From Candidatus Hadarchaeota archaeon (GTDB lineage Archaea > Hadarchaeota > Hadarchaeia > Hadarchaeales > Hadarchaeaceae), in NCBI GenBank assembly GCA_964514965.1, contig CAZETV010000002.1:1-32000 (forward strand): a stretch of DNA of 32,000 nucleotides, written 5' to 3'. Below are positions 3,567 to 30,984 of this stretch, piece by piece (position 1 is the stretch's first letter; every line of letters starts with the position of its first letter). The translations under genes and the position numbers were made by a program. The notes beneath the pieces were generated by a model. That model was given only the letters and a program-made list of their open reading frames with translations. It did no database searches and was not told the DNA's origin.

Positions 3567-4680
3567 TTACTGTCTCATCAACCTTAACACCGAAGTGTCG
3601 TCCAGCTCGCTCAATGTGCACGAGCACCTCGTCACCTGGCTTAAGCTTAGCTACCGAGATCGGCTTTCCACCTTTGTCGACGAGATTTATTGTTTCAGCA
3701 TTCTGGAGCAGCGTTTTGAATTTTTCTCCCTCGCACTCGGCCTCAACGAGCAACATCGGCCGACGCTCTATCTTTACTCGTCCGACCACACCCACCCGGG
3801 TCTCTCCCTTAGCGTTTACGAGCAGTACCTCGTCGCCCGCGCCTAGCTCCGACATGTATTTCGTCTTTCCTCCAGGCAATCGGATGTAAGCGTGCACTGC
3901 CCCCGCGTTCACCCGAAATGGGCGAGGCTCGACGAACTCACTTAGCAGCGACTCTGAATGAACCAAGAACATGCCACCTGCCTGACTCCCCACCAGCATC
4001 CCCTCGCCAACGCTCATGAGTGATGTGGTATCAACGCAGGCTCGATCGCCCATACCCACGGGACGAACTGTGGTGACCTTCGCTGGCACAAGCTCAAGTT
4101 TTTCAAGCGCGAACATTTCGAATGCCTCACACACTTTTCGGATTTCTCCAGTCCCACGCTCTCGCGAGTCAAGCAATACACCGGCAGCACCGATTTCGAG
4201 TGTCTCTATCGCGACCTTGGCTTCCTCGGCGTCTTTCACCCCAGTCAAAACTTTGACTTCAGCGCTTTGGAGTTCAGCGATTAAGTTCTCGAGTGGAATC
4301 ACTTTCCAATCAGGCGTAATTGCGATTAAGAAGTCAGCTACTTTTCCAGCCTTGACGGCGGCGCGCTCAAGTTCTTTATTCGCTACCTCGACAAGTACCG
4401 CAACCTTTTTTTCTTGTTTGTGCAAAGCCTCAACTTGCTTGATTGCTTGTTTGACCTCTGCGGTGCTTCGAGCGCTCAACATCACCACGCCAACACTCGG
4501 CGCCAGCTCATTTGTCGAGATGGTGACAGTTCCGAGCTTAAGTGCTTCTTGAACCTCCTTGGGCTTAACCAGCACGACATCCGCGCCGGCCTCAATCGCT
4601 GCGTTGATGAATGGTTTCCGCTTTTCCCAAGGCTCTTCCCAGTCAGCCCTGACCCAAACAAGCTTGCGCAATTTTTTCAC
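3556..4680 (-). CDS. aroB': 3-dehydroquinate synthase II (archaeal type, MJ1249 family)
   Basis: 374-aa ORF. The C-terminal half matches my memory of MJ1249 closely ([13 protein letters not shown]..., [16 protein letters not shown]..., LQNAETI...). Confidence 0.88.
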
Positions 4681-8076: not shown

Positions 8077-8967
8077 GTGTGGATTCTGGCTAAACGTCGA
8101 GGAACTGCTTCGGCGTGCGGCTCCGCTACCGTTGTTAACGCGATAGCTACGGGCAAAGGAGCCGCATTCGGGGTCGAGCTTCGAGTTAGAGCGAGTTGCG
8201 AGCTTACCGGCAGGCCAGGGGAGATTATCGGGCGAGTGGTTGATGACCCCACTGAAAGCCCTCGACTGATTGAGATATGTGTGCAAAAAGTTCTCAAACA
8301 TTTCAAGCTTGAACGAACCTACGGCGCACGAGTGCAGACAAGGTCTAAAGTCCCGATTGCCATGGGGCTTTCGAGCAGTTCCGCTGCTGCTAACGCTGCG
8401 GTGCTCGCTACTTTCGCGGCGCTTGGCCGAAAACCAAACCCAAAACTTGTACTGGACTTGGGTATCGATGCCGCATTTGAGGCAGGTGTCACCATAACCG
8501 GAGCACTTGATGACGCAGCGGCTTCATTTTTTGGTTTCGGTGTAATAACAGACAACATCAAACGACTGGTGCTTCAACGATTCAAACTAAATCCGAAGCT
8601 CACCGTGCTAATTTATGTGCCACCGACGAAGTTCCACACTTCGCAGATAAACATGACTCGGGTAAAGTCACTTCAGAAGGGCGTCAAGGTCGCACACGAT
8701 CAAACTATACTAGGAAATGTCTTCGGTGCCTTAACGCTCAACGGCTTGCTCTACTCGAGCGCGCTCGGCTACGACCCAATGATAATGCTAGATGCTTTGG
8801 CCGCGGGTGCGCTCGCAGCTGGCCTTACAGGTACTGGTCCAGCGGTAGTAGCAATAGCTAAATCGAATAACGTCGAGAGTATAAAGAAGTCTTGGCGATG
8901 GAGACCCGGGAGAATAATCACCACCAAGCCGGCCACGGAGGGCGCACGAATCGAGAGATATCTATGA
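8077..8967 (+). CDS. aroK: Shikimate kinase, archaeal GHMP-kinase type
   Basis: Has a GHMP motif (PIAMGLSSSSAAANA) and an N-terminus (GSATVVNAIATGKGAAFGVEL) resembling my memory of the M. jannaschii archaeal shikimate kinase. GTG start. Confidence 0.8.
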   Translation: MWILAKRRGTASACGSATVVNAIATGKGAAFGVELRVRASCELTGRPGEIIGRVVDDPTESPRLIEICVQKVLKHFKLERTYGARVQTRSKVPIAMGLSSSSAAANAAVLATFAALGRKPNPKLVLDLGIDAAFEAGVTITGALDDAAASFFGFGVITDNIKRLVLQRFKLNPKLTVLIYVPPTKFHTSQINMTRVKSLQKGVKVAHDQTILGNVFGALTLNGLLYSSALGYDPMIMLDALAAGALAAGLTGTGPAVVAIAKSNNVESIKKSWRWRPGRIITTKPATEGARIERYL

Positions 8968-9752
8968 GTGAGAAAAAGTTGCAGATGCTAAGGCAGGAAA
9001 TAGACGATATTGATGAACGGGTCATCTTATTGCTCGCGCAGCGGTTGAAACTAGCAGACGATCTCGTGGCGCTGAAACGGAAACTCAAGATAGGAATCAG
9101 AGACATGACAAGAGAACGAGCAGTCATCAACCGTGCTAGAAAGCGGGCAAAAAGTGAGGGGCTGGAACCCGCGTTCATCGAGAGCGTGATGCGGTTGGTG
9201 ATAGCGCACATGGCTGGAGTGGAGCGCGAGTTCGTAGGCGGCGCGGGGATGTGGACGAAAATTCAGGACGCCTTCGCTAATTTTCCAGCTCAGCTCAACG
9301 TTGCGCGGACACTGTTCAAATATGGGCTTCGAGTACGGGAGAATGGAGAAATTGCCTGCGGCGATATCCGGATTCCCGCTGTCCAGATAGCAGGGGAAGT
9401 AGGCGTTGACCGGCGCGTGGTCGATGCTACCGCCCAGACTATTTTGAAAAATGATGAGCTGCGTGGGATATTCGAAAACCTTGAGCCCATAGCCTACTTG
9501 AAGGGTGTGGCCCAGCAGATCGGGATGGGGGTAATCGAGATTTTGCCGAAGAACGCAACCGAGCCCGGCATAATAAGCGAGGTGGCGGGCACCATCTCAC
9601 GCTTTAAGATAAGCATCCGCCAAGCAGTTGCGGAAGACCCTCACTTCGTGCCTCAACCCAAGTTGACTTTAATCACTGACGAGCCAGTGCGTGGCGACGT
9701 GATCGAAGCACTGAGAAAGTTGCCGAGCGTACAAAGCGTTGTCGTTTATTAG
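8964..9752 (+). CDS. AroQ-type chorismate mutase fused to a C-terminal putative HTH + ACT regulatory module (COG2150-like)
   Basis: The N-terminal ~95 aa (LQMLRQEIDDIDERVILLLAQRLKLADDL...RERAVI) is a typical AroQ helical CM. The C-terminal ~160 aa contains an HTH-like stretch (IPAVQIAGEVGVDRRVV) and an ACT-like beta-alpha-beta region. The ATG at 8964 overlaps the aroK TGA (ATGA), so the track start at 8892 is rejected. Confidence 0.75.
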   Translation: MSEKKLQMLRQEIDDIDERVILLLAQRLKLADDLVALKRKLKIGIRDMTRERAVINRARKRAKSEGLEPAFIESVMRLVIAHMAGVEREFVGGAGMWTKIQDAFANFPAQLNVARTLFKYGLRVRENGEIACGDIRIPAVQIAGEVGVDRRVVDATAQTILKNDELRGIFENLEPIAYLKGVAQQIGMGVIEILPKNATEPGIISEVAGTISRFKISIRQAVAEDPHFVPQPKLTLITDEPVRGDVIEALRKLPSVQSVVVY

Positions 9753-14670: not shown

Positions 14671-15471
14671 ATGAAAGTTGTTCACATATCCGACTTGCAT
14701 TGCGGAGAAAATCCATACGCCCCTCAGAAGCTTGAGATGGCTATAAGAGAGATAAACAACATGAAGCCCGATGTTGTAGTGCTTACCGGAGACCTAACTT
14801 GGAACGGACTCTTAGAGGAGTACAGCCTGGCGAAGGAGTACCTCGAAAAACTTGAATGCAAGCATCTCCTCATAGGCGGGGGAAATCACGACTATAAACT
14901 CACGGGCTTTTTGCTCCTAAACAAATTTTTCCCTAGACCTGAAGTTCTAGTGACGGAAGACGCGGTGGTCTGTTACATCTCAACCTCAAGGCCCGACAGA
15001 GATGACGGCGAGGTCGGACACCGGCAACTCCTTTGGATTCGGGAAATTATGAAGAAATACAAAAATAAGTTCAAGGTAGTCGCCATGCATCATCACTTGG
15101 TGCCTATTCCTGACACGGGGACTTCACAGAATCTAGTCTTAGATGCTGGAGACGTGCTCAAAGTATTAATTGAAAGTGGCGTGAACTTGGTTCTGTGCGG
15201 GCATAAACATAGACCGTGGAAAACGAAAATTGAAGATATGCACATACTTAACGCGGGTAGCGTTTCTTCTCGAAGATTGCGCGGATTTTTTTCCAACTCT
15301 TACAACACTATAAATATAAAAGCAAATTCCTTCCGCGCAGAGTTAAAGATTGTCGGAAAGAGGAAAATGAGTTTCGAAGAGATATTGCGAGGTTATGATG
15401 GCATTTCACCTCGGGAAATTAAACCACTCCCCACCGGCTACTCCCATCACAAAAAGAAAGAGCAAAGTTAA
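14671..15471 (+). CDS. Calcineurin-like metallophosphoesterase
   Basis: Has the DLH, GDLT, GNHD, HHH and GHKH metal-ligand motifs in canonical order. An SD (GGAGA) lies 3 nt before the ATG. The gene is visibly more AT-rich than the flanking genes. Confidence 0.75.
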   Translation: MKVVHISDLHCGENPYAPQKLEMAIREINNMKPDVVVLTGDLTWNGLLEEYSLAKEYLEKLECKHLLIGGGNHDYKLTGFLLLNKFFPRPEVLVTEDAVVCYISTSRPDRDDGEVGHRQLLWIREIMKKYKNKFKVVAMHHHLVPIPDTGTSQNLVLDAGDVLKVLIESGVNLVLCGHKHRPWKTKIEDMHILNAGSVSSRRLRGFFSNSYNTINIKANSFRAELKIVGKRKMSFEEILRGYDGISPREIKPLPTGYSHHKKKEQS

Positions 15472-15804: not shown

Positions 15805-15898
15805 CGTCGCCTCTGTGTGTTGTAGTGTAATACTTGGATGGGACTTATTCAAAAGCTGGTTTGATGTTGCAACCTGTTTTACACGCTTATTTAACAAC

Positions 15899-15927
15899 TG
15901 GTGCGGGGGAGGGGATTCGCACCCCTG
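15899..15927 (-). repeat. Orphan copy of the 3' end of tRNA-Leu (C48 plus T-arm, acceptor 3' strand, A73 and CCA); direct repeat of 21000-21028 (candidate att site)
   Basis: tggtgcgggggaggggattcgcacccctg versus tggtgcgggagaggggattcgaacccccg gives 26/29 identical in the same orientation. No remaining tRNA structure follows it. Confidence 0.7.
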
Positions 15928-16121
15928 TTTACTAGTAAATTAAGATTTTAAATCAGTTTTTTTACTCTTGATGGCTCATCTCAAGCCATCTAACTCGAAC
16001 ACGGTGCACGTGCCAATTACTAACTAATACCTCGGGGCTAAAATTCGACCCCAAACGTCTAATACACTATGCCTCTAGAGCCTCCTTTACTTTCCTCAGC
16101 GTTAACCATCGTGCGTCAGGC

Positions 16122-16154
16122 TTAAATAGTAGTTCAAATAATTTTGAAATACTA
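16122..16154 (+). promoter_or_regulatory. TATA-like box (TTAAATA, 16122-16128) plus a 28-bp imperfect palindrome (16127-16154) reaching the permease start codon; candidate ArsR operator
   Basis: TAGTAGTTCAAATA|ATTTTGAAATACTA has 11/14 half-site positions symmetric. The core is TTCAAA-taat-TTTGAA and the outer arms are TAGTA/TACTA. The ATG is at 16154. Confidence 0.45.
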
Positions 16155-17248
16155 TGTACGACATTATCGGATCCGGCTTGAACGCCCTGATGGAGTACCT
16201 CTCGGCGCACGTGCTCACCTGCCTAGTACCGGCTTTCTTCATCTCGGGGGCGATAGCAGTTCTGGTCAGCAAGGGAACCGTCATCAAATACTTCGGGGCG
16301 GGGACCAAGAAGTGGCTGTCCTACAGCGTCGCCTCTGTATCCGGGACAATCTTGGCCGTCTGCAGCTGTACCATCCTGCCCATGTTTCAAGGCATCTACA
16401 AAAGAGGGGCCGGCATTGGGCCGGCCACCGCCTTCCTGTTTTCAGGTCCGGCAATCAACGTGCTGGCGATAGTGTTCACCGCCGGCATACTGGGCTTCGA
16501 TCTGGGGATTGCCAGGGCCGTGGCCTCGATCTCCATGTCGGTGATAATCGGCTTGGTCATGGCCGCAGTTTTCGAGAGGGGCAAGAGGGCGGGGGCCGCG
16601 GCCGTTGCTCCGGCAGTCGCCCAGGTAGAGGCCACTGGGACGCGCCCCAGATATATCTCCCCAGCGTTCTTCGCCCTGCTGGTCACGATACTGCTAGTCG
16701 GCGCTTCTGGCCTGATCTCCCTAGAGTTCAGGCTGGCGGTCGTGTATTTGCTCACCATAGCGGTCGCCGTGATATTGATATTCTACTACTCTAGGGACGA
16801 GGTCAAAAGCTGGGGCCGCGAGACCTGGTGGGTGGTGAAAAGGATATTCCCGATCCTTCTGGTCGGAGTTTTTATAGTTGGGGCCATCGGGGGCGTCGCC
16901 GCTAATTTCTCGCCGTCGCACGACCCGTCGACCGCAGTGGGCGAGCTGACTAGGCCCTACCTCGGCAACAACTCACTCCTCGCCTGCCTGCTGGGGTCCG
17001 TCATCGGGGCGCTCCTCTATATGCCGACGCTGCTCGAGGTCCCGATAGTGGGGACGTTTTTCGGCTACAGCTCCAGGCTCATGGCCGCCGGGCCCGCCCT
17101 CGCCCTGCTGCTGGCCGGACCGGCCATAAGCCTGCCCAGCATGATCGTGATTGTGAGGATGATCGGGTGGAGAAAGGCCAGCGTTTACATTACGCTGGTG
17201 GTCACCGTCGCCACGGCGATGGGCATAATCTACGGTGGATTGGCATGA
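16154..17248 (+). CDS. Permease of the COG0701 / ArsP-like family with a vicinal CxC motif
   Basis: 364-aa polytopic ORF. ILAVCSCTILPMF (Cys-Ser-Cys within a TM helix) and GPATAFLFSGPAINV are typical of this family, which is commonly found next to thioredoxin-like and ArsR genes. Confidence 0.8.
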   Translation: MYDIIGSGLNALMEYLSAHVLTCLVPAFFISGAIAVLVSKGTVIKYFGAGTKKWLSYSVASVSGTILAVCSCTILPMFQGIYKRGAGIGPATAFLFSGPAINVLAIVFTAGILGFDLGIARAVASISMSVIIGLVMAAVFERGKRAGAAAVAPAVAQVEATGTRPRYISPAFFALLVTILLVGASGLISLEFRLAVVYLLTIAVAVILIFYYSRDEVKSWGRETWWVVKRIFPILLVGVFIVGAIGGVAANFSPSHDPSTAVGELTRPYLGNNSLLACLLGSVIGALLYMPTLLEVPIVGTFFGYSSRLMAAGPALALLLAGPAISLPSMIVIVRMIGWRKASVYITLVVTVATAMGIIYGGLA

Positions 17249-17315
17249 TCGCCTCAACGTTCGAACCTCCAACATACTGAGGTCTGCCCACGAAAAAACA
17301 TCCGAAGGGTCAAAC

Positions 17316-19736
17316 ATGGAACAGGGATTTGAGACGAACCTAGAAGACGGCTTGGACGCGCAGGAGGTCCAGAGGAGGCTGGCCAAGTACGGGTACAACG
17401 AGGTTCCCGAGAGGCGAGTGAGTTTTTGGGCGAGACTGGGCAAACGTTTCTGGGGCATGGTGCCGTGGATGTTAGAAGCCACCGCCATCGTCACAATAGT
17501 TCTGGGCAAGTACCCGCAGGCACTCGTTATCGTGTTCCTCCTCCTGTTCAATGCGGGAATGTCGCTGTGGCGTGAGGGTAGGGCAAAGACGGCGATGACC
17601 AAGCTGAAGCAGAGGCTGAGAATAGAAAGCCGGGTAAGAAGGGATAGAAAATGGTCCACCGTCCCGGCTAGGGAGCTGGTTCCAGGGGATGTCGTCAGGG
17701 CCAGGATCGGCGATCTCCTGCCGGCGGACGTAAAGATCGTTGACGGTTCCCTCGGCCTGGACCAATCGGTGCTCACCGGCGAATCCGGAATCGTGGACAA
17801 GCTACCCGCGGAGATAGCCTATTCGGGGTCAGCGATCAAGCGAGGCGAGGCCACAGGCGTGGTGGTTGCCACGGGAACAAAAACCTATTTTGGCAGAACC
17901 ATCTCCCTGCTTGAACTGGCAAAGCCAAAGCTCCACATGGAAGAGGTCACGGTTAAAATTGCTCGCCAGCTTGCGATGCTGGTTGTAGCTTCTCTCCTTG
18001 TCGTCTTTGTCTACGCAGCGCTGACGGGTTTTGAGTTCGCCGTCCTGCTGCCCCTCGCCAGTGTGTTGCTCATAGCCGCTGTGCCAGTCGCCATGCCCAC
18101 AATGTTCACCATAAACATGGCGCTCGGCTCGGCGGTACTGGCCAAGCATGGCATCCTTGTCACAAGGCTCAGCGCCTCCGAAGACGCAGCAACCATGGAT
18201 GTCATATGTGTAGACAAAACGGGCACGATAACCATGAACAAGCTCTTCGTGGAGGAAGAAACACCGCTGAACGGATTCAGCGAGGGCGACGTCGTGTTGT
18301 ATGGCGCACTTGCATCAAAAGAAGCCAATCAGGACCCAATCGACATGGCCTTCCTAACGGCCGCAAAACAAGCAAACCTGACCCTAGACGCTTACTCACA
18401 AGCAGATTTCGTTCCCTTCGACCCCAAAACCAGGATGACCGAAGCCACGATCAACAAAGCGAGCGAAAAATTCTTCGTGGGAAAAGGCTCGTTCGACATA
18501 ATATGCGCTGCCTGCAACGTTCCCGAGGATGAAGCCAAGACAATGCTCAAGTTCGCTGAGGAGCTTTCTGCAAGGGGATTGAGGGTAATCGCCGTTGCCA
18601 AGGGCGAGGATAGAGGCAAGCTGGAGTTTGTCGGCCTCGCGGGCATTGCCGATCGGATAAAGGAGGATTCGCGCGAGATACTCGACCAGATCCGGGGATT
18701 GGGCGTAGAGGTGAAGATGCTCACGGGCGATTCGATTCCGATCGCCAAAAACATCGCACACCAAGTGGGATTGGGCAATAATATCACCACTATGTCAGAG
18801 ATTCAGGAGGCTGAAACCGAAAACACGCCCGTTGACTCGGTGATTGAGGAGAGCCACGGCATCGCCCAGATTTATCCCGAGGACAAGTTCAGCATAGTTA
18901 AGGCTCTCCAGCGCATGGGACACGTGGTGGGAATGACTGGGGACGGCGTGAACGACGCCCCTGCTCTGGGGCAGGCGGAAGTCGGCATCGCGGTGAAGAA
19001 CGCGACGGATATCGCCAAAGATTCTGCTAGTGCCGTGCTCACGGTTGAGGGCCTCGGCGGAATAGTGGGCATGATCAAGACGTCGAGGACGATCTACCAG
19101 AGGATCTACAGCTGGGCGCTGATGATGGTCGCCCGAAAGCTGGATATCGCCGGCTACATCGTCATCATGCTGTTTCTCACCCACTCATTTCTGCTGTCAA
19201 TAACCAGTACGGTGTTGATGCTCTTCCTGGGCGACTTCGTTTCGATGGCCATATCGACAGACAATGTACGCTCCTCTCTCAAGCCTGACACCTTCGACAT
19301 GCGCCGCCTGTTTGGGGTCAGCGGATTACTGGGTTTACTGATGATTATCGAGGGCGTGATCTTCACCGTGCCCGCCCTATTGTACTTTGGGTTGATCGGC
19401 AACGTGGATAAAATCTACACCTTCGGGTTTGCTTATCTCAACTTGGCGGGCATATCCACGCTCATGATAGTTCGTGAGCGGAATCACTTCTGGAAGTCAA
19501 AGCCCAGTAGGTTCTTGAGCGTCATGGTTCTGGCCGAAGTCCTGTTCGTGATTGTCGTCTCCGTCTTTGGCGTTCTAGAGCTTGCGCCGCTCGGCTTCGC
19601 GCCCGTGCTCGCGATTCTCGGCTTCGCGCTGGCAACGACGTTCGTAATCAACGATCCGATTAAGGTATACTTAATACGCAAATTCAAGACTAGCGTAACC
19701 AGTCATCCAAAAGGTTTAAATAATAATTTCAAATAA
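17316..19736 (+). CDS. P-type ATPase, type IIIA-like (plasma-membrane H+-ATPase family)
   Basis: Has DKTGTITMN (phosphorylation site), TGES, MLTGD and MTGDGVNDAPAL. The TM4 motif is AAVPVAMPT (P3A-like) rather than the CPC of heavy-metal P1B pumps. I prefer the ATG at 17316, because the GTG at 17235 would overlap the permease gene. Confidence 0.85.
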   Translation: MEQGFETNLEDGLDAQEVQRRLAKYGYNEVPERRVSFWARLGKRFWGMVPWMLEATAIVTIVLGKYPQALVIVFLLLFNAGMSLWREGRAKTAMTKLKQRLRIESRVRRDRKWSTVPARELVPGDVVRARIGDLLPADVKIVDGSLGLDQSVLTGESGIVDKLPAEIAYSGSAIKRGEATGVVVATGTKTYFGRTISLLELAKPKLHMEEVTVKIARQLAMLVVASLLVVFVYAALTGFEFAVLLPLASVLLIAAVPVAMPTMFTINMALGSAVLAKHGILVTRLSASEDAATMDVICVDKTGTITMNKLFVEEETPLNGFSEGDVVLYGALASKEANQDPIDMAFLTAAKQANLTLDAYSQADFVPFDPKTRMTEATINKASEKFFVGKGSFDIICAACNVPEDEAKTMLKFAEELSARGLRVIAVAKGEDRGKLEFVGLAGIADRIKEDSREILDQIRGLGVEVKMLTGDSIPIAKNIAHQVGLGNNITTMSEIQEAETENTPVDSVIEESHGIAQIYPEDKFSIVKALQRMGHVVGMTGDGVNDAPALGQAEVGIAVKNATDIAKDSASAVLTVEGLGGIVGMIKTSRTIYQRIYSWALMMVARKLDIAGYIVIMLFLTHSFLLSITSTVLMLFLGDFVSMAISTDNVRSSLKPDTFDMRRLFGVSGLLGLLMIIEGVIFTVPALLYFGLIGNVDKIYTFGFAYLNLAGISTLMIVRERNHFWKSKPSRFLSVMVLAEVLFVIVVSVFGVLELAPLGFAPVLAILGFALATTFVINDPIKVYLIRKFKTSVTSHPKGLNNNFK

Positions 19737-19754
19737 AATTGAAATGGTGTTCAC

Positions 19755-20015
19755 TTGAAGATAAGGGTTTTCGGCACGGTACCGCCCTGCGTGAAGTGCA
19801 AGGCAGCCGAAGCGGCAGTGAAGGAAGCCGTGAAGGAGCTCGGCTACAGCGATATCGAGGTGTCCAAAGAGGACGCGCTGTCGGAGGAGGCCGGAAAACT
19901 GGGCATAATGATGACGCCGACGGTGATGATAGACAGCAAAGTTATCAAGGTCGGGGGCGTCCCATCCAAGGACGAAGTTAAGCGGGCCATAGAAGGAACC
20001 AGGAAAGGCGGTTGA
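19755..20015 (+). CDS. Thioredoxin-fold protein (redox-active disulfide protein 2 / Thioredoxin_3-like), CVKC active site
   Basis: 86 aa. MKIRVFGTVPPCVKCKAAE... with a cis-Pro loop (MTPTVMID). TTG start with GGTG 9 nt upstream. Confidence 0.75.
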   Translation: MKIRVFGTVPPCVKCKAAEAAVKEAVKELGYSDIEVSKEDALSEEAGKLGIMMTPTVMIDSKVIKVGGVPSKDEVKRAIEGTRKGG

Positions 20016-20270
20016 ATGGTAAGGCTGGAGGTCTTCACGGCCGAGCCGCCGTGTCCGGGCTGCTTGAAACTACTTGAACTTGCCGACAGGATGAAGGAAG
20101 AATACAGTGACAGGGTCGAGGTCGTGAAGCACATCGGACCCTGCGACGAGTTAGCGAAGTATGGCATAACGGTGGTTCCGGCGACGGTTATCGACGGCAG
20201 GATAAAGCTGATGGGTGTCTGCCCCAGCGAGAGAACGCTCAGGACAGCCCTGTGGGAGGCGGGAGCGTGA
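20016..20270 (+). CDS. Thioredoxin-fold protein, CPGC active site plus two extra Cys
   Basis: 84 aa. The ATG immediately follows the upstream TGA (TGAATG). Has PPCPGC, a cis-Pro loop (VVPATVIDG), and extra Cys in GPCDE and GVCPS. Confidence 0.7.
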   Translation: MVRLEVFTAEPPCPGCLKLLELADRMKEEYSDRVEVVKHIGPCDELAKYGITVVPATVIDGRIKLMGVCPSERTLRTALWEAGA

Positions 20271-20524
20271 AGCTGCTGGTCGAAGTGTTCGTTTCCTTGC
20301 CGCCGTGCTCCGGGGGTAGGATGGTTAAGAAGATGATGGTGGAGATCGTGGAAAAGTACGGGGACCGCGTCGAGATCAAGACATACGAGGGAGCCAACGA
20401 AAAGACCAAGGAATATGGCATCGAAACGACCCCCGCGATTGTCATCGACAAGGACATCAGGATCACCGGCGTCGCTCCGAGCATGGAGACCTTGGAGAAC
20501 GCCTTGAAGGAAGCCGGATTATAA
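20267..20524 (+). CDS. Thioredoxin-fold protein, degenerate CSGG site (monothiol paralogue)
   Basis: 85 aa from a GTG at 20267 that overlaps the upstream TGA (GTGA). A clear paralogue of the preceding gene (EVF..PPC.G...Y.DRVE...YGI...PA.VID...GV.PS..TL..AL.EAG). Confidence 0.65.
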   Translation: MKLLVEVFVSLPPCSGGRMVKKMMVEIVEKYGDRVEIKTYEGANEKTKEYGIETTPAIVIDKDIRITGVAPSMETLENALKEAGL

Positions 20525-20548
20525 GAACCTGAAGGGCTAGTAAAGCTA

Positions 20549-20926
20549 GTGGTAGACTTGAAAAGGAGCGCAAAGGGGACAGGGCCCGTCAGACTTCGAG
20601 ACAAGATATCCGGGGCCTACGACATCTCGGAGGAATCTCTGAAACGTGCGGATAAAGAGATTCGCGCGGACACCAAGGAAGCAATAAAGTTTTTGGAAGC
20701 CTTGGACCACCCAACAAGGTTGCGCATCCTCAGGGCGCTGAGAACGGGGGAACTGTGTGTTTGCGTGTTTGTCGCGTTAATGAAGATTAAACACTCGAAG
20801 CTATCCTACCACCTAAAACTGTTGAAGAACGCGGGACTGGTTGATTCCAGGAAGGATGGATACTTCGTAGAATACAGGATCACCGATTTGGGAAGAAGAA
20901 TGTTGGAGAATATCGAGGGGCATTAA
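20549..20926 (+). CDS. arsR: ArsR/SmtB-family metalloregulator with ELCVC motif
   Basis: Winged-HTH core ALDHPTRLRILRAL..GELCVCVF......SKLSYHLKLLKNAGLV. GTG start at 20549, with an in-frame TTG at 20558 as the alternative. Confidence 0.85.
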   Translation: MVDLKRSAKGTGPVRLRDKISGAYDISEESLKRADKEIRADTKEAIKFLEALDHPTRLRILRALRTGELCVCVFVALMKIKHSKLSYHLKLLKNAGLVDSRKDGYFVEYRITDLGRRMLENIEGH

Positions 20927-20999
20927 AGTCTAACACTTCCCTTGACTGGGGACGCCTTCGGCTAGCTCTTTTGATTCCGCCTCTGACGTCATTAAAAAA

Positions 21000-21102
21000 T
21001 GGTGCGGGAGAGGGGATTCGAACCCCCGAACTCCTTCGAGGCCAGATCTTGAGTTTCGCCCTTTCGCGACTGGCGCCTTTGACCTGACTTGGCTACCCCC
21101 GC
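21000..21102 (-). tRNA. tRNA-Leu (anticodon CAA), class II, with a 15-nt insertion/intron (21055-21069) and genomically encoded CCA
   Basis: Hand-folded. Acceptor GCGGGGG/CTCCCGC, D-arm GCC-AAGTCAGGTCAAA-GGC. After removing TCGCGAAAGGGCGAA the anticodon arm is CCAGA-CTCAAGA-TCTGG. Long variable arm CCTCGAAGGAGTTC, T-arm GGGGG-TTCGAAT-CCCCT, then A73 and CCA. Confidence 0.8.
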
Positions 21103-21163: not shown

Positions 21164-22330
21164 ATGACCGGATTCGAATCCCGTCGCGCTTTCGAACACC
21201 TCGACAAGCTGGCCTACGAGATTGGGCCTCGGTTGGCCGGCACGCGGGGCGACGGCATGGCTGCGGATTATATCCAAACGCAGCTCGAGAGTTACGGGAT
21301 CAAGACGCGGGTGCAGGAGTTCAAGTTCGTGGATCGCGCCGCTCGGGCCAAAGCCACCGCGTGCATCCTCGCCGCAGCTTTCATCACTTTTCTTTTCCTC
21401 CCACCCGAAGCTTCTTTGCTTGTCTGGATTTTGGCACTCATGGTCTGGCGCTCGCTCGATTGGCTCATGCCCAAGCGGAAGAGCCAAAACATCATCGGCA
21501 CTCTCGGGGCGCGAGAGTCGAAGAAGGGGGCCGCGATAACTGCCCACTATGACTCTGCACCTTGCATGGTGAGCTACAAGCTGCACCTATCCGTTAAGTT
21601 CACCTTTGCTCTGGCTCTCGCCCTCATCACCCTCGCCCTAGCTCTCAGGACGTTCAGTTTGCTCCCGGCGTGGTCGGTCGCATGGACAGTACTCGCGATT
21701 GTTTTCATGCCCGTTTGCGTCGGCATGTTTGTTGCAGCGAGCAGCCGGCACGTATCGCCAGGTGCTGATGACAACGCTTCAGGGGTTGTGGTAATGCTAG
21801 AAGCGGCGCGCGTGGCTGCAGAGTCCCCACCTGCTGATGCTAGGTTAACTTTCATCGCACTCGGGGCAGAAGAGCAGGGACTCGTGGGTGCGCGCAGGCT
21901 CGTGGCGAGCAAGGCGCTACCCAAAGACACGATGGTGCTTAATCTTGACATGGTTGGAGCCGGCTCACACGCTTACATCATCGAAGGCAACGGTATCTTT
22001 CTGAGGAGGAGAACTTCGCCCGAGCTCAACGAAAGACTCGCCAACTGTGTCAAAAATGTCGGGCTAAACCCGAAGTTCTGGTGGGCAGCGCTCGCCGGGC
22101 ACGACCACATCCCGTTTGTGCGGGCCAAGATGCAGGCGACTACTTTTTCAATCAGCACTCATGACCAAGACAAGCTCGGCAACTTCATCACGAGGATGTT
22201 CGGGTTGACCAATGCTAAGACAATCGGATATCGCTACATTCACACGCTTGAGGATACTCCCGAGCGGGTTGAGCTGGCTAACATCGAGCGAGCTGGCGCG
22301 GTGGTACTCGAGTTCGTTAAAACAATTTAA
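21164..22330 (+). CDS. M28-family zinc metallopeptidase with inserted transmembrane hairpins
   Basis: M28 ligand motifs occur in order: AHYDS, GADDNASG, GAEEQGLVGA, LNLDMVG, HTLEDT. The ATG at 21164 has a GGGGGAG SD 4 nt upstream. The track start at 21089 overlaps the tRNA gene and is rejected. Confidence 0.75.
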   Translation: MTGFESRRAFEHLDKLAYEIGPRLAGTRGDGMAADYIQTQLESYGIKTRVQEFKFVDRAARAKATACILAAAFITFLFLPPEASLLVWILALMVWRSLDWLMPKRKSQNIIGTLGARESKKGAAITAHYDSAPCMVSYKLHLSVKFTFALALALITLALALRTFSLLPAWSVAWTVLAIVFMPVCVGMFVAASSRHVSPGADDNASGVVVMLEAARVAAESPPADARLTFIALGAEEQGLVGARRLVASKALPKDTMVLNLDMVGAGSHAYIIEGNGIFLRRRTSPELNERLANCVKNVGLNPKFWWAALAGHDHIPFVRAKMQATTFSISTHDQDKLGNFITRMFGLTNAKTIGYRYIHTLEDTPERVELANIERAGAVVLEFVKTI

Positions 22331-27748: not shown

Positions 27749-28522
27749 TCACAGGTCGCGGACGAGTTTTAGGGTATTTTTATGAACCCTCCCGTTGGAA
27801 AAGACTAAGTCAGACTTTTCAGTCTTCCATACTCGGCCCCTGAAATCGGTGACCTTGCCTCCAGCCTCTCGAACCAACAGCACACCGGCAGCGACATCCC
27901 AAGGTTCGATCTCTGTGGTGATGTAGGCGTCTCCCCTCCCGCAGGCGACCCATGCGGACTCCAAGCCAGCCGAGCCCAACTTTCGGAGATCCCTCACCTT
28001 TGGATAAATCGCGCCGTTTATCTCGCTTGTCCTAAGCCTGTTTTTTTCTCCCCCTTCACAGGAGTAGACGTAACATTTCCCCAGCTTCTCAGTGGTGGAA
28101 ACCGAAATTCTCTCTCGGTTTAAGAAAGCGCCCTTATCCTTTTCCGCGATGTAGAGCTCGTTAATGGTTGGGGCATAGGTTACCCCCAAGATAGGCTCGT
28201 TTTTCCTCAAGAGTGCGAGGGTCACGCAATAGAGCGGGTTGCCGGAGGCGAAATTCACCGTTCCATCGAGCGGGTCAACTATCCACGTGTATTCGGAGTT
28301 TCTGTTGATAACCCCGCTCTCCTCGGTCCAGATATTGTAAGCCGGGTATTTTTCCGAGATGGTCTTGACAATCAATTTATCTGATTTCTTGTCGTGCTCT
28401 GTGATGATCCCCTTAACTGTTTTACGGAGGCTGAGCAGCTTCCGATCCTTCCTGAAGTAGGCGGCCAACTCTTTCCCTGCTTGCGTGGCCAGTTCGACAG
28501 CAAATTTTTGATCTGATCCCAT
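27749..28522 (-). CDS. suhB: Inositol monophosphatase / fructose-1,6-bisphosphatase family protein
   Basis: TEESG, WIVDPLDGTVNF and WDVAAG motifs. Confidence 0.8.
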   Translation of the reverse strand: MGSDQKFAVELATQAGKELAAYFRKDRKLLSLRKTVKGIITEHDKKSDKLIVKTISEKYPAYNIWTEESGVINRNSEYTWIVDPLDGTVNFASGNPLYCVTLALLRKNEPILGVTYAPTINELYIAEKDKGAFLNRERISVSTTEKLGKCYVYSCEGGEKNRLRTSEINGAIYPKVRDLRKLGSAGLESAWVACGRGDAYITTEIEPWDVAAGVLLVREAGGKVTDFRGRVWKTEKSDLVFSNGRVHKNTLKLVRDL

Positions 28523-28674
28523 TTTGCCATGCTCCCTGCTAGCCTAACATTTACCAAAACTAGATGATTGTACTTCCTCTAAAACTTTGCACGTTCTACT
28601 TTTGCAGTGAGGGCGAACTGCATTGGACTATCCCAATTGCAGCCCACATTTTTTAATATTCAGTATATACTTAA

Positions 28675-28703
28675 TTTTCAGAAAAGTTTAAATACTCTGA
28701 AAA
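28675..28703 (+). promoter_or_regulatory. 8-bp perfect inverted repeat TTTTCAGA-N13-TCTGAAAA bracketing a TTTAAATA TATA box upstream of the AbrB-like gene
   Basis: Read directly. The arms are at 28675-28682 and 28696-28703, the TATA-like element at 28687-28694, and the ATG at 28728. Confidence 0.45.
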
Positions 28704-28727
28704 TTAGTACTTGACAGGTGATACGAA

Positions 28728-29000
28728 ATGCCCAAGAAAGGGTCTTACCACGTGCCGACGAACGAGGAAACCGGCTGCTGTAAAGCTGAGTCATTAATAA
28801 CAGTAGATGGACGGGGACAGATGGTGCTTCCCAAAGAGATAAGGGACAGGGCAAAAATTCGTCCAGGTGATAAACTAGCCATTGTAAGCTTGGAAAAAGA
28901 CGGGGAAATATATTACATCTATTTAATTAAAGCTGAGAAAATCGCAGAAATGTGTAAGAGTTTACTCGGCCCCGTGATGAAAGAAATAATCTCAAAATGA
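28728..29000 (+). CDS. AbrB/MazE/SpoVT-type DNA-binding protein with an N-terminal vicinal Cys-Cys motif
   Basis: Looped-hinge-helix core VDGRGQMVLPKEIRDRAKIRPGDKLAI, preceded by EETGCCKAES. Lies 31 nt upstream of arsM on the same strand. Confidence 0.75.
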   Translation: MPKKGSYHVPTNEETGCCKAESLITVDGRGQMVLPKEIRDRAKIRPGDKLAIVSLEKDGEIYYIYLIKAEKIAEMCKSLLGPVMKEIISK

Positions 29001-29031
29001 TGATGGCAAATAACTCTGGAGATGACCAAGA

Positions 29032-29862
29032 ATGAATAATGAAAAAATAAAGAAACCCGTAAGGGAATACTACGCTAAAGTAGCGAAACAGAGCTGCTCA
29101 TGCTACATCCCTGTAAAATCGCAGTGCGGTGTGTGTGGCTCAACACAGGATATGATGGGGTACACCGATGAAGAACTTAAAGGAGTCCCTGAAGGTTCAA
29201 TTTTGGAACTTGGTATTGGAAACCCTGTTGCCCCCGCGTCTTTAAGAAAAGAGGAGATAGTCCTTGACCTTGGTTCAGGCGCAGGACGTGATTGTTTTAT
29301 CGCCGCCAACAAAGTTGGTAAGAGTGGAAGAGTTATCGGCGTAGATATGACACCAGAGATGATCGACAGAGCAAGAAAAAACGCGGAGAAGAGTAACTAC
29401 AAAAATGTTGAGTTCAGGCTCGGAGAAATCGAAAACCTACCGGTTGCCGACAATTCCGTTGACGTAGTCATCTCAAATTGCGTTATCAACCTTGTGCCTG
29501 ACAAAAGAAGGGTCTTAAGGGAGATGTTCAGAGTGATGAAGCCTGGAGGAAGGTTCGTAATCTCAGATGTAATTCTGCTGAAGGAACTTCCCGATTTCGT
29601 GAAGAACTCTGTTGAGGCATATGCTAGTTGTCTTGCGGGAGCGGTCATGAAGAACGAATTTATGGAAGCGATAAATGCAGCGGGCTTTCAGGACGTTAAA
29701 GTGATCGACGAGGTATCATCCCTTACGGAGAGTGTGCTCGACCATCCAACCGCAAAGACAATCATCACAAATTCCAAAATACCACTTAAAAAAGTAAAAG
29801 ATATGGTAATCTCTGCTGGAAGAATAAGAGTTTACGGTGTTAAACCAAACGACAAAATTTAA
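29032..29862 (+). CDS. arsM: Arsenite S-adenosylmethionine methyltransferase
   Basis: SAM motif VLDLGSGAGRDCF, DVVISNCVINL and YASCLAGA (the two conserved catalytic Cys contexts), and an N-terminal Cys cluster CSC...CGVC. Confidence 0.8.
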   Translation: MNNEKIKKPVREYYAKVAKQSCSCYIPVKSQCGVCGSTQDMMGYTDEELKGVPEGSILELGIGNPVAPASLRKEEIVLDLGSGAGRDCFIAANKVGKSGRVIGVDMTPEMIDRARKNAEKSNYKNVEFRLGEIENLPVADNSVDVVISNCVINLVPDKRRVLREMFRVMKPGGRFVISDVILLKELPDFVKNSVEAYASCLAGAVMKNEFMEAINAAGFQDVKVIDEVSSLTESVLDHPTAKTIITNSKIPLKKVKDMVISAGRIRVYGVKPNDKI

Positions 29863-29871
29863 ACTAAATCT

Positions 29872-30984
29872 TTAACGCTTACTCAGAAACTCCTGCCCTT
29901 CGACTTCCTTGAGCTTCGCAGGCATGTATTCATTGACCACATACGCCAAGCCGTACTTCGCGAAAGCCTGCTGCTCTGCTTTTCTCCCGAGCTCGAGCAT
30001 CTTCTTGATTTCGGACTGCCAGAACTCGGTGTTGTAGCGCGGGTCCTTAAGCAGCTGCTTTAGACGCGCGATATCGAGCTCGCGTAGTTTGTCGGTCGGG
30101 AGCTTGTAGTTAACGATATCGCTCGCTGTGACTCCCAAGTACTTCGCGTCTGGAACCGCCAGCTCGTGGTTGATGTAGGCAAGCTTCGCGCTGCCAGAGA
30201 TAATCACCATTGCGATATGAAAGCCGAAAGGATCTCCATCACAGTTCAGGTATACCGGTAGCCCCAGCTCCTCGTTTGCCTTCTTAAGGAACCGTCTAGT
30301 CGCGCGAGCTGCCTGACCCTTGAGCCCGACTATCAGCGCGTCGAACTTCTTCCACGCTTGTTCCTGCACGAGACGGTGGTACATACCCATGGTCTCAACC
30401 GCGATCACTTGCTTCGCTTTGCACTTGATGAATTCAACATCGTCTATGGTCGGCGGGATGGTGTACCCTGCACGTCCTGCCTTGGTCGCGTCTATTACAA
30501 CTCCATCTTCGTCGACCACCAGCTTACCATAGACTGCTGCTCCATCTTCTTCGGGAGTCAAGCCCAAATCTTCGCGCTTGAGACTGAAGGCCGCCTCTAA
30601 ATCCTCTATGATTGCGTCAGATTCTCCTTGATCATAGAATGGACCAACCTCCCAACCCTCGGCTGTATAATACATCTCCCTGAGGGTCGCGAATTTCCCT
30701 TGTTCGATGAGTTCCTTCGCGAAGTCAGCCGTGCATAAAAGTTGAGCGAATTTCTTCACCTGTTTCATACTCCCTGCTGAGCGCACTCCCCAGCGCGGTC
30801 CGAGCACGAAGTACCGGTGGGAATTGTCATAGATGATGTTAGAGGTGCTTCGCGAGGGGATTTTTAACTTGGGAGGGTGGGCATTCGTAATATCATTCAC
30901 TACATCTTGACCCATATCGGTGAGCTTTTTTGACGCCTTCTGCCTGTGCCCCTGCCCCCGCGCTGTTTTAACTTTCTTCGGCAT
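29872..30984 (-). CDS. top6A: DNA topoisomerase VI subunit A (Spo11-like)
   Basis: [11 protein letters not shown] region (the catalytic Tyr context) and a Toprim region ([13 protein letters not shown], ...[13 protein letters not shown]). The ATG at 30984 has GGTG 8 nt upstream, and the GTG at 30996 is the alternative. Overlaps the top6B 3' end. Confidence 0.9.

Follow-up and report, generated by a model that had tools for sequence, protein, structure and literature searches.

How a compact group of six co-directional genes came to lie between a tRNA-Leu(CAA) gene and a displaced copy of the 3' end of that same gene is the question raised by this hadarchaeal locus, which was analysed within a 32-kb stretch of DNA (hereafter the window) belonging to a MAG contig of 245 kb. 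Trapped elements lacking an integrase have been described as 'gene capture in archaeal chromosomes' (She et al. 2001, cited in PMC8371274), integrases targeting tRNA-Leu are known in archaea (PMC5495485), and archaeal integrated elements have been surveyed by Cortez et al. 2009 (PMC2718499) and, as 'cryptic integrated elements', by Krupovic et al. 2019 (PMC6563490). For Hadarchaeota, a literature search found no description of integrative elements. The segment at 15928-20999 (~5.1 kb) is best read as a decayed integrative islet of the 'gene capture' type, a known kind of feature that is newly seen in this phylum; we hold with moderate confidence that it entered the 3' end of tRNA-Leu(CAA) in the host, an uncultured Hadesarchaeon, by site-specific recombination of the tyrosine-recombinase type.

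The tRNA-Leu(CAA) gene (21000-21102, minus strand) has its CCA encoded and carries a 15-nt intron at about 21055-21069, in a non-canonical position 5' of the anticodon. It is matched by Rfam RF00005 (41.5 bits, 21003-21102, minus strand); a default ARAGORN run did not detect it, and the intron mode (-i) returned tRNA-Leu(caa) i(36,15), with a cloverleaf once spliced. The last 29 nt of the gene, that is, the working 3' end or proximal att copy (21000-21028, minus strand), recur on the same strand at 15899-15927 as a distal, attR-like remnant with 26/29 identical positions. The preliminary description of the locus had claimed this direct repeat, and its existence is well founded: no match was obtained in 100 shuffles, and ungapped extension raises it to 31/35 (15891-15925 against 20992-21026). 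As also claimed, no tRNA structure was found at 15899-15927, and the segment lies on the expected side, downstream of the tRNA 3' end. The repeat is not dispersed within the window, where no core copy beyond these two was found (up to 5 mismatches in 21 nt; blastn-short). The attL/attR-type footprint is real.

The remnant consists of a 21-nt core (15899-15919) followed by a divergent part (15920-15927); its departure from the tRNA sequence is confined to position 22 and further inward. Its core is identical (21/21) to the tRNA 3' end of two related genomes, L002 and L004. The working tRNA, on the other hand, is derived at repeat position 10: all the relatives' tRNAs have a G there, and the A at 21009 results in a G:U pair in the acceptor stem. 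An ancestral remnant facing a derived working tRNA fits the pattern predicted by hybrid att sites, but the comparison involves only three polymorphic positions, and the same would be seen if the dead copy had simply decayed and a single neutral substitution had arisen in the tRNA.

Four related MAGs can be aligned to the window at 86-89% identity, and all these alignments open precisely at the 3' end of the tRNA (20999), the tRNA itself being ~98% conserved across species. L002 and L004 have a conserved flank directly against the tRNA and no insert between them, whereas L003 (DG-33) bears a different insert of 0.68 kb at the same nucleotide position and with the same polarity, accompanied by its own remnant and by the conserved outer flank: a clean occupied/empty pair. 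As DG-33 acquired its insert independently at this very point, the tRNA-Leu 3' end is a recurrent integration site. Moreover, a small inverted repeat on the inner side of the core, GTTTAC-TA-GTAAA (15927-15939), has a counterpart in L003 at equal offset, GTTTAC-CG-GTAAA. The similarity of the inner arms of window and L003 gives p~0.05-0.08 in an anchored test, and the motif is suggestive of an element arm or recombinase-binding site of which it may be a relic. The other side of the locus behaves differently: nothing left of the tRNA, out to 21 kb, matches the left flanks of the four relatives, the window left of 15899 has no counterpart there even by tblastx, and the gene nearest to the remnant on the left was seen in four genomes with different neighbours every time. 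Therefore, the tRNA 3' end is also a synteny breakpoint. The empty-site check proposed in the preliminary description therefore fails on the left side: L002 and L004 lack the segment at the tRNA, but no relative showed the window's own left flank joined directly to the tRNA.

The foreign composition suspected for the segment is borne out by both GC3 and arginine codon usage, which separate the six islet genes from 32 flank genes. GC3 ranges from 0.63 to 0.81 in the islet genes, against 0.57 pooled over the flanks (Mann-Whitney p=1.6e-5), with pooled ArsP, thioredoxin-like and ArsR genes at 0.76 and the ATPase at 0.69. Arginine AGR:CGN counts are 53:25 in the islet and 145:387 in the flanks (Fisher p=9e-12); leaving out the ATPase, the operon has 31:8, or 80% AGR versus 27% in host genes. 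Both flanks are CGN-type (left 19-31% AGR, right 37%), and those immediately to the left of the remnant, at 31%, resemble the host in this respect. At the native loci of the operon, used as a control, its GC3 is not above that of the flanks (0.67/0.63, 0.53/0.54 and 0.53/0.59); the operon does not carry the anomaly as a property of its own, since none is seen where it is native. The closest relatives L003 and L004 are CGN-type (29-31% AGR), and Hadarchaeum-type loci have 50-63% AGR. The runs of AGR codons in the ATPase, previously offered as a foreign mark, turn out to be uninformative: the gene has AGR:CGN 22:17 here and also in its stand-alone homologue in L036, and other homologues have 18:19 (L040) and 23:16 (L050). 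The contrast in bulk GC is modest (0.548 vs 0.507), and the markedly AT-rich left side (GC 0.36-0.39) corresponds to a 680-bp intergenic stretch.

The islet begins with a non-coding end of 193 nt (15928-16120) that has no counterpart in native operon loci and whose ORFs gave no family match; homology to L044-L051 starts at 16121/16122. The promoter region of the first unit, conserved in the native operon, follows (16121-16150, plus strand, as all the islet genes), with a TATA-like CTTAAATA and then the palindrome TTCAAATAATTTTGAAAT at 16133-16150, 4 nt ahead of the ATG of an ArsP-family permease of 364 aa (16154-17248; Pfam PF03773, 217 bits). One membrane segment of the permease bears a vicinal Cys pair (AVCSC), which we take to be the defining mark of organoarsenical ArsP; the protein does not reach the thresholds of the closest curated equivalogs in NCBIfam (SaoE, SO_0444), and its nearest relatives are from Hadarchaeum/Hadesarchaea (85/83/79/75%). 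The second gene (17316-19736, 806 aa) encodes a P-type ATPase of the P3A type (plasma-membrane proton-efflux type), which passes the cut-off of the curated equivalog NCBIfam TIGR01647 (677.8 bits against 615.5); its start is at 17316 in public records, and the ORF may open as early as 17235. This gene fills the variable middle of the operon, and its protein is closer to stand-alone genes (88-89%, L036/L040) than to the in-operon gene (73%, L050/L051).

From 19703 onward the sequence is again homologous to the native operon, and a second promoter region (19714-19745, plus strand) overlaps the ATPase stop codon, with TTTAAATAATAA and then the palindrome TTCAAATAAAATTGAAAT at 19728-19745. Three thioredoxin-like proteins and a regulator follow. 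Protein 1 (19755-20015, 86 aa, CVKC motif) is 81% identical to its L044 orthologue and is best matched by NCBIfam TIGR00412 (MTH895/ArsE-type) at 56.4 bits, under the cut-off of 62; an overlapping ORF, 19739-19981, was considered as the third gene and rejected as spurious from its GC1/GC3 pattern, the true frame being 19755-20015. Protein 2 (20016-20270, 84 aa, CPGC; Pfam Thioredoxin_3) is 87% identical to its L044 orthologue, and protein 3 (20252-20524, ~85-90 aa; Pfam Thioredoxin_3) 84-86% to those of L044/L045; the motif of the latter is CSGG, so its second Cys is missing. The last gene (20549-20926) encodes an ArsR/SmtB metalloregulator (NCBIfam NF033788, 79.9 bits, cut-off 55) with an ELCVC metalloid-binding motif and 58-62% identity to orthologues; its true start may be later, because these have 117 aa. 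A non-coding end of 73 nt (20927-20999) completes the islet and closes with a run of A directly against the 3' end of the tRNA.

The segment had been described as a single six-gene co-directional operon: the six genes are indeed co-directional, but they more likely form two transcription units, since the same TATA-like box and palindrome head each of them. The palindrome pattern occurs only twice, at the two unit heads, with 0.17 occurrences expected by chance, and TTCAAATAATTTTGAAAT is a candidate ArsR operator. In each unit, ArsR would probably bind the palindrome TTCAAATAAWWTTGAAAT, placed downstream of the TATA-like box and ahead of the start codon, and a thiol-reactive metalloid at ELCVC would release it, allowing the permease to carry out efflux, the thioredoxin-like proteins redox handling, and the ATPase ion pumping or energisation of the membrane. 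The operator and the substrate carried are both predicted, and the operon appears to be of the ArsR/SmtB-regulated metalloid-efflux type. It resembles ars operons in its ArsR/SmtB repressor with a CVC site, its PF03773 permease with a Cys pair and its CxxC thioredoxin-fold partners; unlike them, the islet holds no ArsB/Acr3, ArsC or ArsA and has a P3A-type ATPase embedded.

Elsewhere in Hadesarchaea, the operon occupies a conserved, tRNA-free chromosomal locus, with orthologues 75-85% (ArsP), 72-87% (thioredoxin-like) and 58-62% (ArsR) identical to the islet proteins. Its middle is a swap zone, occupied by the ATPase in the islet and by DUF169/radical-SAM genes in other genomes. As judged by sequence, the cargo is a lineage-typical chromosomal operon of the Hadarchaeum type with no recognisable mobile element: all six genes fall into transport, redox or regulator classes, with chromosomal orthologues. 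The reported absence of an integrase holds, no recombinase domain being found in the annotated ORFs of the 32-kb window or in the junction ORFs. Furthermore, no integrase pseudogene or fragment was found in the window, the junction ORFs having no Pfam or PHROG match; no int(N)/int(C) reads across the att sites, where the ORFs over the remnant end within 5 codons; no backbone genes for replication, conjugation or virion were found in the window; and collections of viruses, plasmids and phages yielded no parent element, whether free or integrated. The initial proposal of a decayed or trans-mobilised element thus keeps its footprint, its foreign composition and its lack of integrase, but the element has no mobile-element genes and its cargo comes without a vehicle.

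Three other explanations have been weighed. The locus could be the product of a rearrangement, in which the tRNA 3' end recombined with an att-type remnant elsewhere and inverted or translocated a large block, bringing the whole left side of the window with the operon up to the tRNA, either by an integrase acting in trans or by homologous recombination between att scars; the 5.1 kb would then not be a discrete insert, and the remnant would be an older scar carried along with the block. The exact coincidence of the synteny break with the tRNA 3' end in the comparison with four relatives is in line with such an origin, as are the heavily scrambled gene order of Hadarchaeota and the position of tRNA-Leu genes exactly at inversion borders in Thermococcales, where a tRNA-Leu-targeting integrase catalyses inversions (PMC5495485). 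We nevertheless consider it unlikely: the copies form a direct repeat with a spacing of only 5.1 kb, as insertion gives, and the outer part of the remnant is the ancestral 3' end of the very same tRNA (21/21). Moreover, the codon usage of the operon is foreign to both flanks while the left genes are host-like, so that a purely intragenomic move leaves the composition unexplained. Rearrangement and insertion are not exclusive, because the former could precede the latter.

Quite unlikely, in our view, is a two-step composite history, in which an old element at tRNA-Leu, possibly pre-dating the split from DG-33, decayed to a scar, and the ars-like operon came later, settling in that decayed DNA or taking its place through illegitimate or homologous recombination, the repeats then not marking the operon's own mode of entry. 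That the remnants of window and L003 depart from the tRNA at the same point, both with GTTTAC-nn-GTAAA, would agree with a common scar, but the similarity of the shared arms is not significant, and L002 and L004, as near to the window as L003, have clean empty sites; an ancestral scar would therefore need precise loss in both lineages. The lack of vehicle genes, the unrelated non-coding DNA that parts the operon from the repeats on both sides and the swap zone within the operon itself also suit a second step, of which no mechanism or junction signature is visible at the locus. Finally, the source is a MAG contig and the tRNA is nearly identical between species, which invites the suspicion that contigs of two co-occurring Hadesarchaea were joined at the conserved tRNA-Leu by assembly or binning, so that no single genome would carry islet, tRNA and right flank together. 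A separately assembled Logan contig, from a different assembler, repeats the left junction at 100% identity over 13.9 kb and exactly reproduces 2.6 kb of the islet; it ends at 18521, and the right junction (ArsR-tRNA) is backed by the source assembly alone. As the flanks on both sides share the CGN-type arginine usage, and as even a mis-join in the tRNA would leave remnant, operon and tRNA-Leu 3' end contiguous and the islet standing, such an artefact is highly improbable.

Taking up again the favoured reading, a site-specific insertion, recombination would have taken place inside the ~21-nt core, which begins at the CCA end and reaches the T-loop (TGGTGCGGGGGAGGGGATTCG). The tRNA would have received its new 3' end from the incoming DNA, including the G-to-A change with its tolerated G:U pair, and the original 3' end would have been displaced 5.1 kb downstream and kept as a non-functional remnant. 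The integrase and the rest of the vehicle would have been deleted after integration, or never linked in cis. We infer this recombinase mechanism, as well as the donor and the direction of transfer: the operon would have come from another Hadesarchaeon with AGR-rich and GC3-rich codon usage, which is not among the sampled genomes, none of which has a GC3 as high as 0.76.

Several known systems share parts of this picture. As in decayed archaeal elements at tRNA genes, a direct repeat of the tRNA 3' end surrounds DNA of foreign composition, the tRNA appears to have been rebuilt by incoming sequence, and recombination functions have been lost, leaving an immobile cargo; unlike in those elements, the islet has no integrase pseudogene or split int(N)/int(C), and its cargo is one chromosomal operon of the same phylum rather than viral or plasmid genes or ORFans. 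The 3' part of tRNA genes, tRNA-Leu among them, is likewise the target of pTN3/TKV4-type and SSV-type ('suicidal') integrase elements (PMC5495485, PMC7253208, PMC8371274), and in these Thermococcales and Sulfolobales elements, too, the tRNA gene coincides with a synteny breakpoint; they keep integrase fragments at both ends and plasmid or virus backbones, whereas the window has neither. Bacterial tRNA-linked islets and metal-resistance islands also show an att duplication around a resistance-type operon with atypical codon usage, but the present case differs in its archaeal host, its intron-containing tRNA and the very small size of an islet of pure cargo.

The locus leaves current concepts unchanged: it is a tidy but ordinary case, which adds one more phylum to those with 'gene capture' at tRNA genes. 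It offers a nucleotide-resolved route for the exchange of adaptive operons in an uncultured deep-subsurface archaeal phylum, by which a metalloid-handling module would have moved whole between Hadesarchaeal lineages at a tRNA gene, with tRNA-Leu(CAA) as both recurrent integration site and synteny breakpoint in Hadarchaeota. A bolder possibility, to which we give little credence, is that the tRNA-Leu(CAA) 3' end of Hadesarchaea serves as a reusable dock, where short integrase-less cassettes (0.68 kb in DG-33, 5.1 kb in the islet) are inserted and swapped by a trans-acting recombinase, whose gene may lie at another place in the genome or on a helper element; GTTTAC-nn-GTAAA beside the core may then be the cassette-side recombination signal. 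If true, this would amount to integron-like or satellite-like transfer of ordinary chromosomal operons between archaeal species. As regards the cargo itself, the transport function of prokaryotic P3A pumps has been reported as undetermined (PMC10654040), and a P3A-type ATPase placed under an ArsR-type regulator, beside an efflux permease, provides a hint on that function.

The DNA between 15928 and 20999 is best labelled a decayed, integrase-less islet of a known kind, and its origin lies probably, though by no means surely, in an integration into the 3' end of tRNA-Leu(CAA) that was followed by decay. Only one tRNA gene is found in the window: the Rfam tRNA model places it at 21003-21102 on the minus strand (41.5 bits) with a long insertion in the anticodon region, and ARAGORN in intron mode reports a tRNA-Leu(caa) at 21000-21102 (-) with a 15-nt intron, the spliced 88-nt product folding as a normal class II cloverleaf with CCA encoded. 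The intron (21055-21069, minus strand) interrupts the anticodon stem on the 5' side of the anticodon, and it is because of this non-canonical position that the default ARAGORN run reports no tRNA in the window. Introns at non-canonical tRNA positions are an archaeal trait, and the same 15-nt intron is present in three related Hadesarchaea/Hadarchaeota contigs (L002-L004), with one substitution in L003, which belongs to Hadesarchaea DG-33.

A second copy of the terminal 29 nt of the gene (21000-21028, plus-strand coordinates) is found at 15899-15927, likewise oriented and with 3 mismatches, coordinates and counts that the preliminary description had given correctly; 100 dinucleotide shuffles produced 0 matches, and ungapped extension brings the repeat to 31/35. 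No tRNA-like structure was found around this second copy, the remnant. A dispersed repeat, the condition under which the earlier proposal was to be abandoned, is not what the window contains, since only two copies of the 21-nt core (search sequence TGGTGCGGGGGAGGGGATTCG) were detected in 32 kb, either by a scan allowing up to 5 mismatches or by blastn-short with the whole tRNA. In the remnant, an A-to-C change at position 22 yields a perfect 6-bp hairpin stem (GGTGCG...CGCACC, 15900-15923), followed by CCTGTTTAC; it was flagged as terminator-like by the scan and could be either a chance or a co-opted structure.

The state of this tRNA 3' end in related genomes was established on four contigs (L001-L004), retrieved with the M28 peptidase of the right flank at 85-86% protein identity, which match the window at 86-89% nucleotide identity across 2.6 to 7.6 kb. 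In all of these relatives the alignment begins at window position 20999, adjacent to the tRNA 3' end (L001 reaches only as far as 21066, where its contig stops), and neither blastn nor tblastx, run in both directions, found a match in them left of the tRNA. The tRNA 3' end of L002 and L004 adjoins the conserved flank directly ('...cccaccgggtcagccta|TGGTGCGGGGGAGGGGATTCGAACC...') and a HAD-hydrolase gene follows, while in L003 the order is the same conserved flank, a degenerate copy of the tRNA end (TGGTGGGGGGGAGGGGATTTCG...), some 680 bp of inserted DNA (1238-1917 of LQHI01000067.1) and the tRNA. L003 and L002/L004 are a textbook occupied/empty pair, which shows that the 3' end of tRNA-Leu is a recurrent insertion point, used repeatedly in Hadarchaeota and with the polarity seen in the window. 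The L003 insert holds a single ORF of 146 aa, Cys/His-rich near its C-terminus (motif WKCCICHE...THVEEMH); the insert was discarded as a clue to any known element, the ORF having no Pfam or PHROG match and no relative in viral contigs. Furthermore, the start of the M28 peptidase coding sequence, some 150 nt upstream of tRNA-Leu, includes a T-arm-like palindrome within its first codons, in the window (21168-21183, CCGGATTCGAATCCCG), in L002 (~3806-3819) and L003 (~2083-2096; both GAATTCGAACCCCG) and in L004 (~777-790, GAATTCGAACCTCG); the palindrome could be coincidental or an old relic derived from a tRNA.

The tRNAs of the relatives also provide the ancestral 3' end (TGGTGCGGGGGAGGGGATTCGAACCCCCG), with which the remnant agrees across the outer 21 nt, differing at positions 22 and 28 only, on the inner side; the working tRNA of the window has changed at position 10 from G to A, converting an acceptor-stem G:C pair into G:U. 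During integration, the 3'-terminal part of the tRNA-proximal att site would be supplied by the incoming DNA, the distal site would combine a 3'-terminal part from the host with an inner part from the element, and the crossover would fall between positions 11 and 21. The differences in both copies are those which integration predicts, but the informative positions are three only, and they could also have arisen by decay of the remnant and a single neutral change in the working tRNA. Moreover, the remnants of the window and of L003 depart from the tRNA sequence at the same point and both then read CACC..GTTTAC-nn-GTAAA, a small inverted repeat. Free local alignment of the two inner arms recovered nothing shared and the anchored test gave p~0.05-0.08, the inverted repeat being a hint of a common inner arm.

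The outer left flank is made up of core archaeal genes (the aro operon, aIF2-beta, Cgi121, PhoU/TrkA-C, MgtE and a metallophosphoesterase) and differs from the flank beside tRNA-Leu in the relatives, and the exact empty site for the window's genome was not found among the relatives compared. As regards an empty site in related genomes, the tRNA 3' end is unoccupied in L002 and L004, but the window's left flank is absent beside it. The metallophosphoesterase (14671-15471) is 75-86% identical across four Hadesarchaeal genomes, in four unrelated neighbourhoods (L029, L032 and L035 among them), and its homology stops at the gene edges; it behaves like a single-gene shuffled unit within a lower-GC tract (11.8-15.9 kb). 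As a probe for the left-flank empty site it gave, in a metagenome scan, only distant homologues (28-30%), and its orthologues (86, 76 and 75%) each lie in another neighbourhood with no usable synteny. The PHO4/PhoU genes by the L035 orthologue were rejected as a tie between left and right flanks, PHO4 being 44% identical (a paralogue) and homology ending at the gene edges. The idea that the tract at 11.8-15.9 kb is an older island in tandem with the islet was also rejected, in view of the lack of further eroded att copies and of the host-like Arg usage of the tract, which is equally found, together with the lower GC, at 11.3-15.5 kb.

Because the left flank is unlike that of the relatives and the metallophosphoesterase neighbourhood is shuffled, the tRNA-Leu 3' end is both a synteny breakpoint and an insertion point. 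A rearrangement that preceded simple insertion or took its place has to be considered a serious alternative, as integrase-driven inversions with tRNA-Leu genes at their borders are described in Thermococcales (PMC5495485); on its own, however, it would leave the foreign codon usage and the direct, closely spaced repeats unexplained. As regards the assembly, a Logan contig from a separate assembly, though probably of the same sample as the window, matches it at 100% identity through the left flank and the remnant and on into 2.6 kb of the islet, and ends before the tRNA, the support for the right junction (islet-tRNA) coming from the source assembly only.

The islet comprises six co-directional genes: an ArsP-family permease with an AVCSC cysteine pair (16154-17248; PF03773, 217 bits), a P-type ATPase (17316-19736) which passes the curated equivalog TIGR01647 for P3A plasma-membrane proton-efflux pumps (678 bits, cut-off 615), three thioredoxin-fold proteins (19755-20015, 20016-20270 and 20252-20524), two with CxxC and one with CSGG, whose best matches, to the MTH895/ArsE and MJ0307 families, are under the cut-offs, and an ArsR/SmtB metalloregulator with an ELCVC motif (20549-20926; above cut-off). 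The third gene as first drawn, an 80-aa ORF at 19739-19981, is spurious, with an inverted GC1/GC3 pattern, the real gene being 19755-20015 in another frame. The palindrome TTCAAATAAWWTTGAAAT occurs twice in the window, against 0.17 occurrences expected by chance. One copy (16133-16150) precedes ArsP, the other (19728-19745) the first thioredoxin gene, each with a TTAAATA TATA-like box upstream and a start codon immediately downstream. From this twin arrangement we infer two transcription units under one putative ArsR-type operator, in place of the single six-gene operon of the preliminary description, of which the common direction stands; the candidate operator would sit where an archaeal repressor would block the promoter. 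Apart from 193 nt at the left end and 73 nt at the right end, all of the DNA within the repeats belongs to the operon. None of the window ORFs or junction ORFs matches a recombinase, virus or plasmid family, in agreement with the initial statement that no integrase is present.

In related genomes, the closest permeases are those of Hadarchaeum/Hadesarchaea (85, 83, 79 and 75%); permeases from other archaeal orders come next, at ~67%, and the left-flank gene shows the same decay of identity (86, 76, 75, then 60%). The native arrangement, found at Hadesarchaeal loci L044-L048, L050 and L051 in a conserved neighbourhood, consists of ArsP, a variable middle and three Trx_3 genes, the stretch analysed of L050 and L051 covering only the first of the latter. 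GCV_T and FrhB-like genes lie upstream, and on the other side of the Trx genes (86/84/85 aa) L044-L048 carry, in this order, ArsR, SBF, another ArsR, a luciferase-like gene, CofE, CofD and CofH; an RNA-gene scan of L044, L045 and L047 showed no tRNA. The window is homologous to the native operon at 16122-17249 and 19703-20919, both promoter/operator regions included, and only the middle differs, with DUF169 and radical-SAM/B12 genes in most relatives versus the ATPase in the window. Rather than a mobile element, the cargo is a chromosomal operon typical of the lineage. In the Hadarchaeum genome of L044, an rve-family (IS-type) transposase (8811-9689) separates the GCV_T and FrhB-like genes from the native ArsP operon, immediately upstream of the latter, and an agent of this type could mobilise or rearrange the operon.

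The middle of L050 and L051 also contains an 806-aa P-type ATPase, 73% identical to that of the window; higher identity (88-89%, the closest ATPases) is seen with genes that stand alone, in contexts with no relation to the operon. Over 100 protein clusters are 74-89% identical to the window ATPase; three are labelled Bathyarchaeota or Chloroflexi, and a cross-phylum transfer is not claimed on three MAG labels. A P3A-type ATPase inside an ArsR-controlled permease/thioredoxin operon is present in several Hadesarchaea (window 17316-19736, L050 16322-18742, L051 6532-8952). Since the transport function of P3A pumps in prokaryotes has yet to be established according to PMC10654040, their association with such an operon may be a clue to what they do.

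The description of the islet as compositionally foreign holds for codon usage, and the rise in bulk GC is modest (0.548 vs 0.507). The operon genes (ArsP, the three Trx and ArsR) have a GC3 of 0.76 and an Arg AGR:CGN ratio of 31:8, compared with 0.57 and 145:387 in 32 flank genes; for all six islet genes the difference reaches p=9e-12 in Arg codons (Fisher) and p=1.6e-5 in GC3 (Mann-Whitney). The AGR codons of the ATPase (GC3 0.69), which had been put forward as a sign of foreignness, carry no signal, their ratio being near 1:1 in every context examined (22:17 in the window and likewise in the stand-alone gene of L036). The Hadarchaeum-type genomes of the native loci use AGR for 50-63% of Arg codons genome-wide, and L003 and L004, the window's nearest relatives, for 29-31%, like the window flanks. 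Since the operon is rich in AGR and GC3 against a CGN-type host, while at native loci its GC3 is not above that of its flanks (0.67/0.63, 0.53/0.54 and 0.53/0.59), it appears to have been imported into a host that uses CGN from a Hadarchaeum-like donor that uses AGR and is rich in GC3.

The islet resembles tyrosine-recombinase integration at tRNA 3' ends in footprint, repeat and composition but, unlike tyrosine-recombinase integrative elements, has neither integrase nor backbone genes. It is a case of 'gene capture' in the sense of She et al., as cited in PMC8371274, and has parallels in the cryptic integrated elements known from surveys of other archaea (PMC2718499, PMC6563490); in the literature searched, no integrative elements are described in Hadarchaeota. 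Its particular traits are the apparent movement of a whole chromosomal operon between lineages of one phylum and the fact that this phylum is Hadarchaeota. An integron-like, trans-acting cassette system at tRNA-Leu, for which two cases and one weak shared motif could be adduced, seems very improbable. The search for a parent element or attP gave nothing relevant in viral contigs, plasmids and phages: 27-mer attP matches in viral/MGE contigs were dismissed as phage tRNA arrays and a high-GC bacterial fragment, the remnant-plus-arm 22-mer had no match in the same contigs, and a search of plasmid and phage records with the whole 5.1 kb brought up nothing beyond generic P-type ATPase motifs.

Finally, the window carries at 28593-29878 a 1.29-kb insertion with respect to L004, L003 being without a larger stretch (27835-29884). 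It lies between convergent genes with no flanking repeats, and has a low GC (0.42-0.45) and an Arg AGR:CGN ratio of 15:3. Its genes code for an AbrB-type 'HgcAB-associated protein HgcC' (28728-29000, above the NCBIfam cut-off) and the arsenite methyltransferase ArsM (29032-29862; 315 bits, cut-off 263). The insertion forms a second accessory metalloid islet at a distance of 8 kb from the one at tRNA-Leu.
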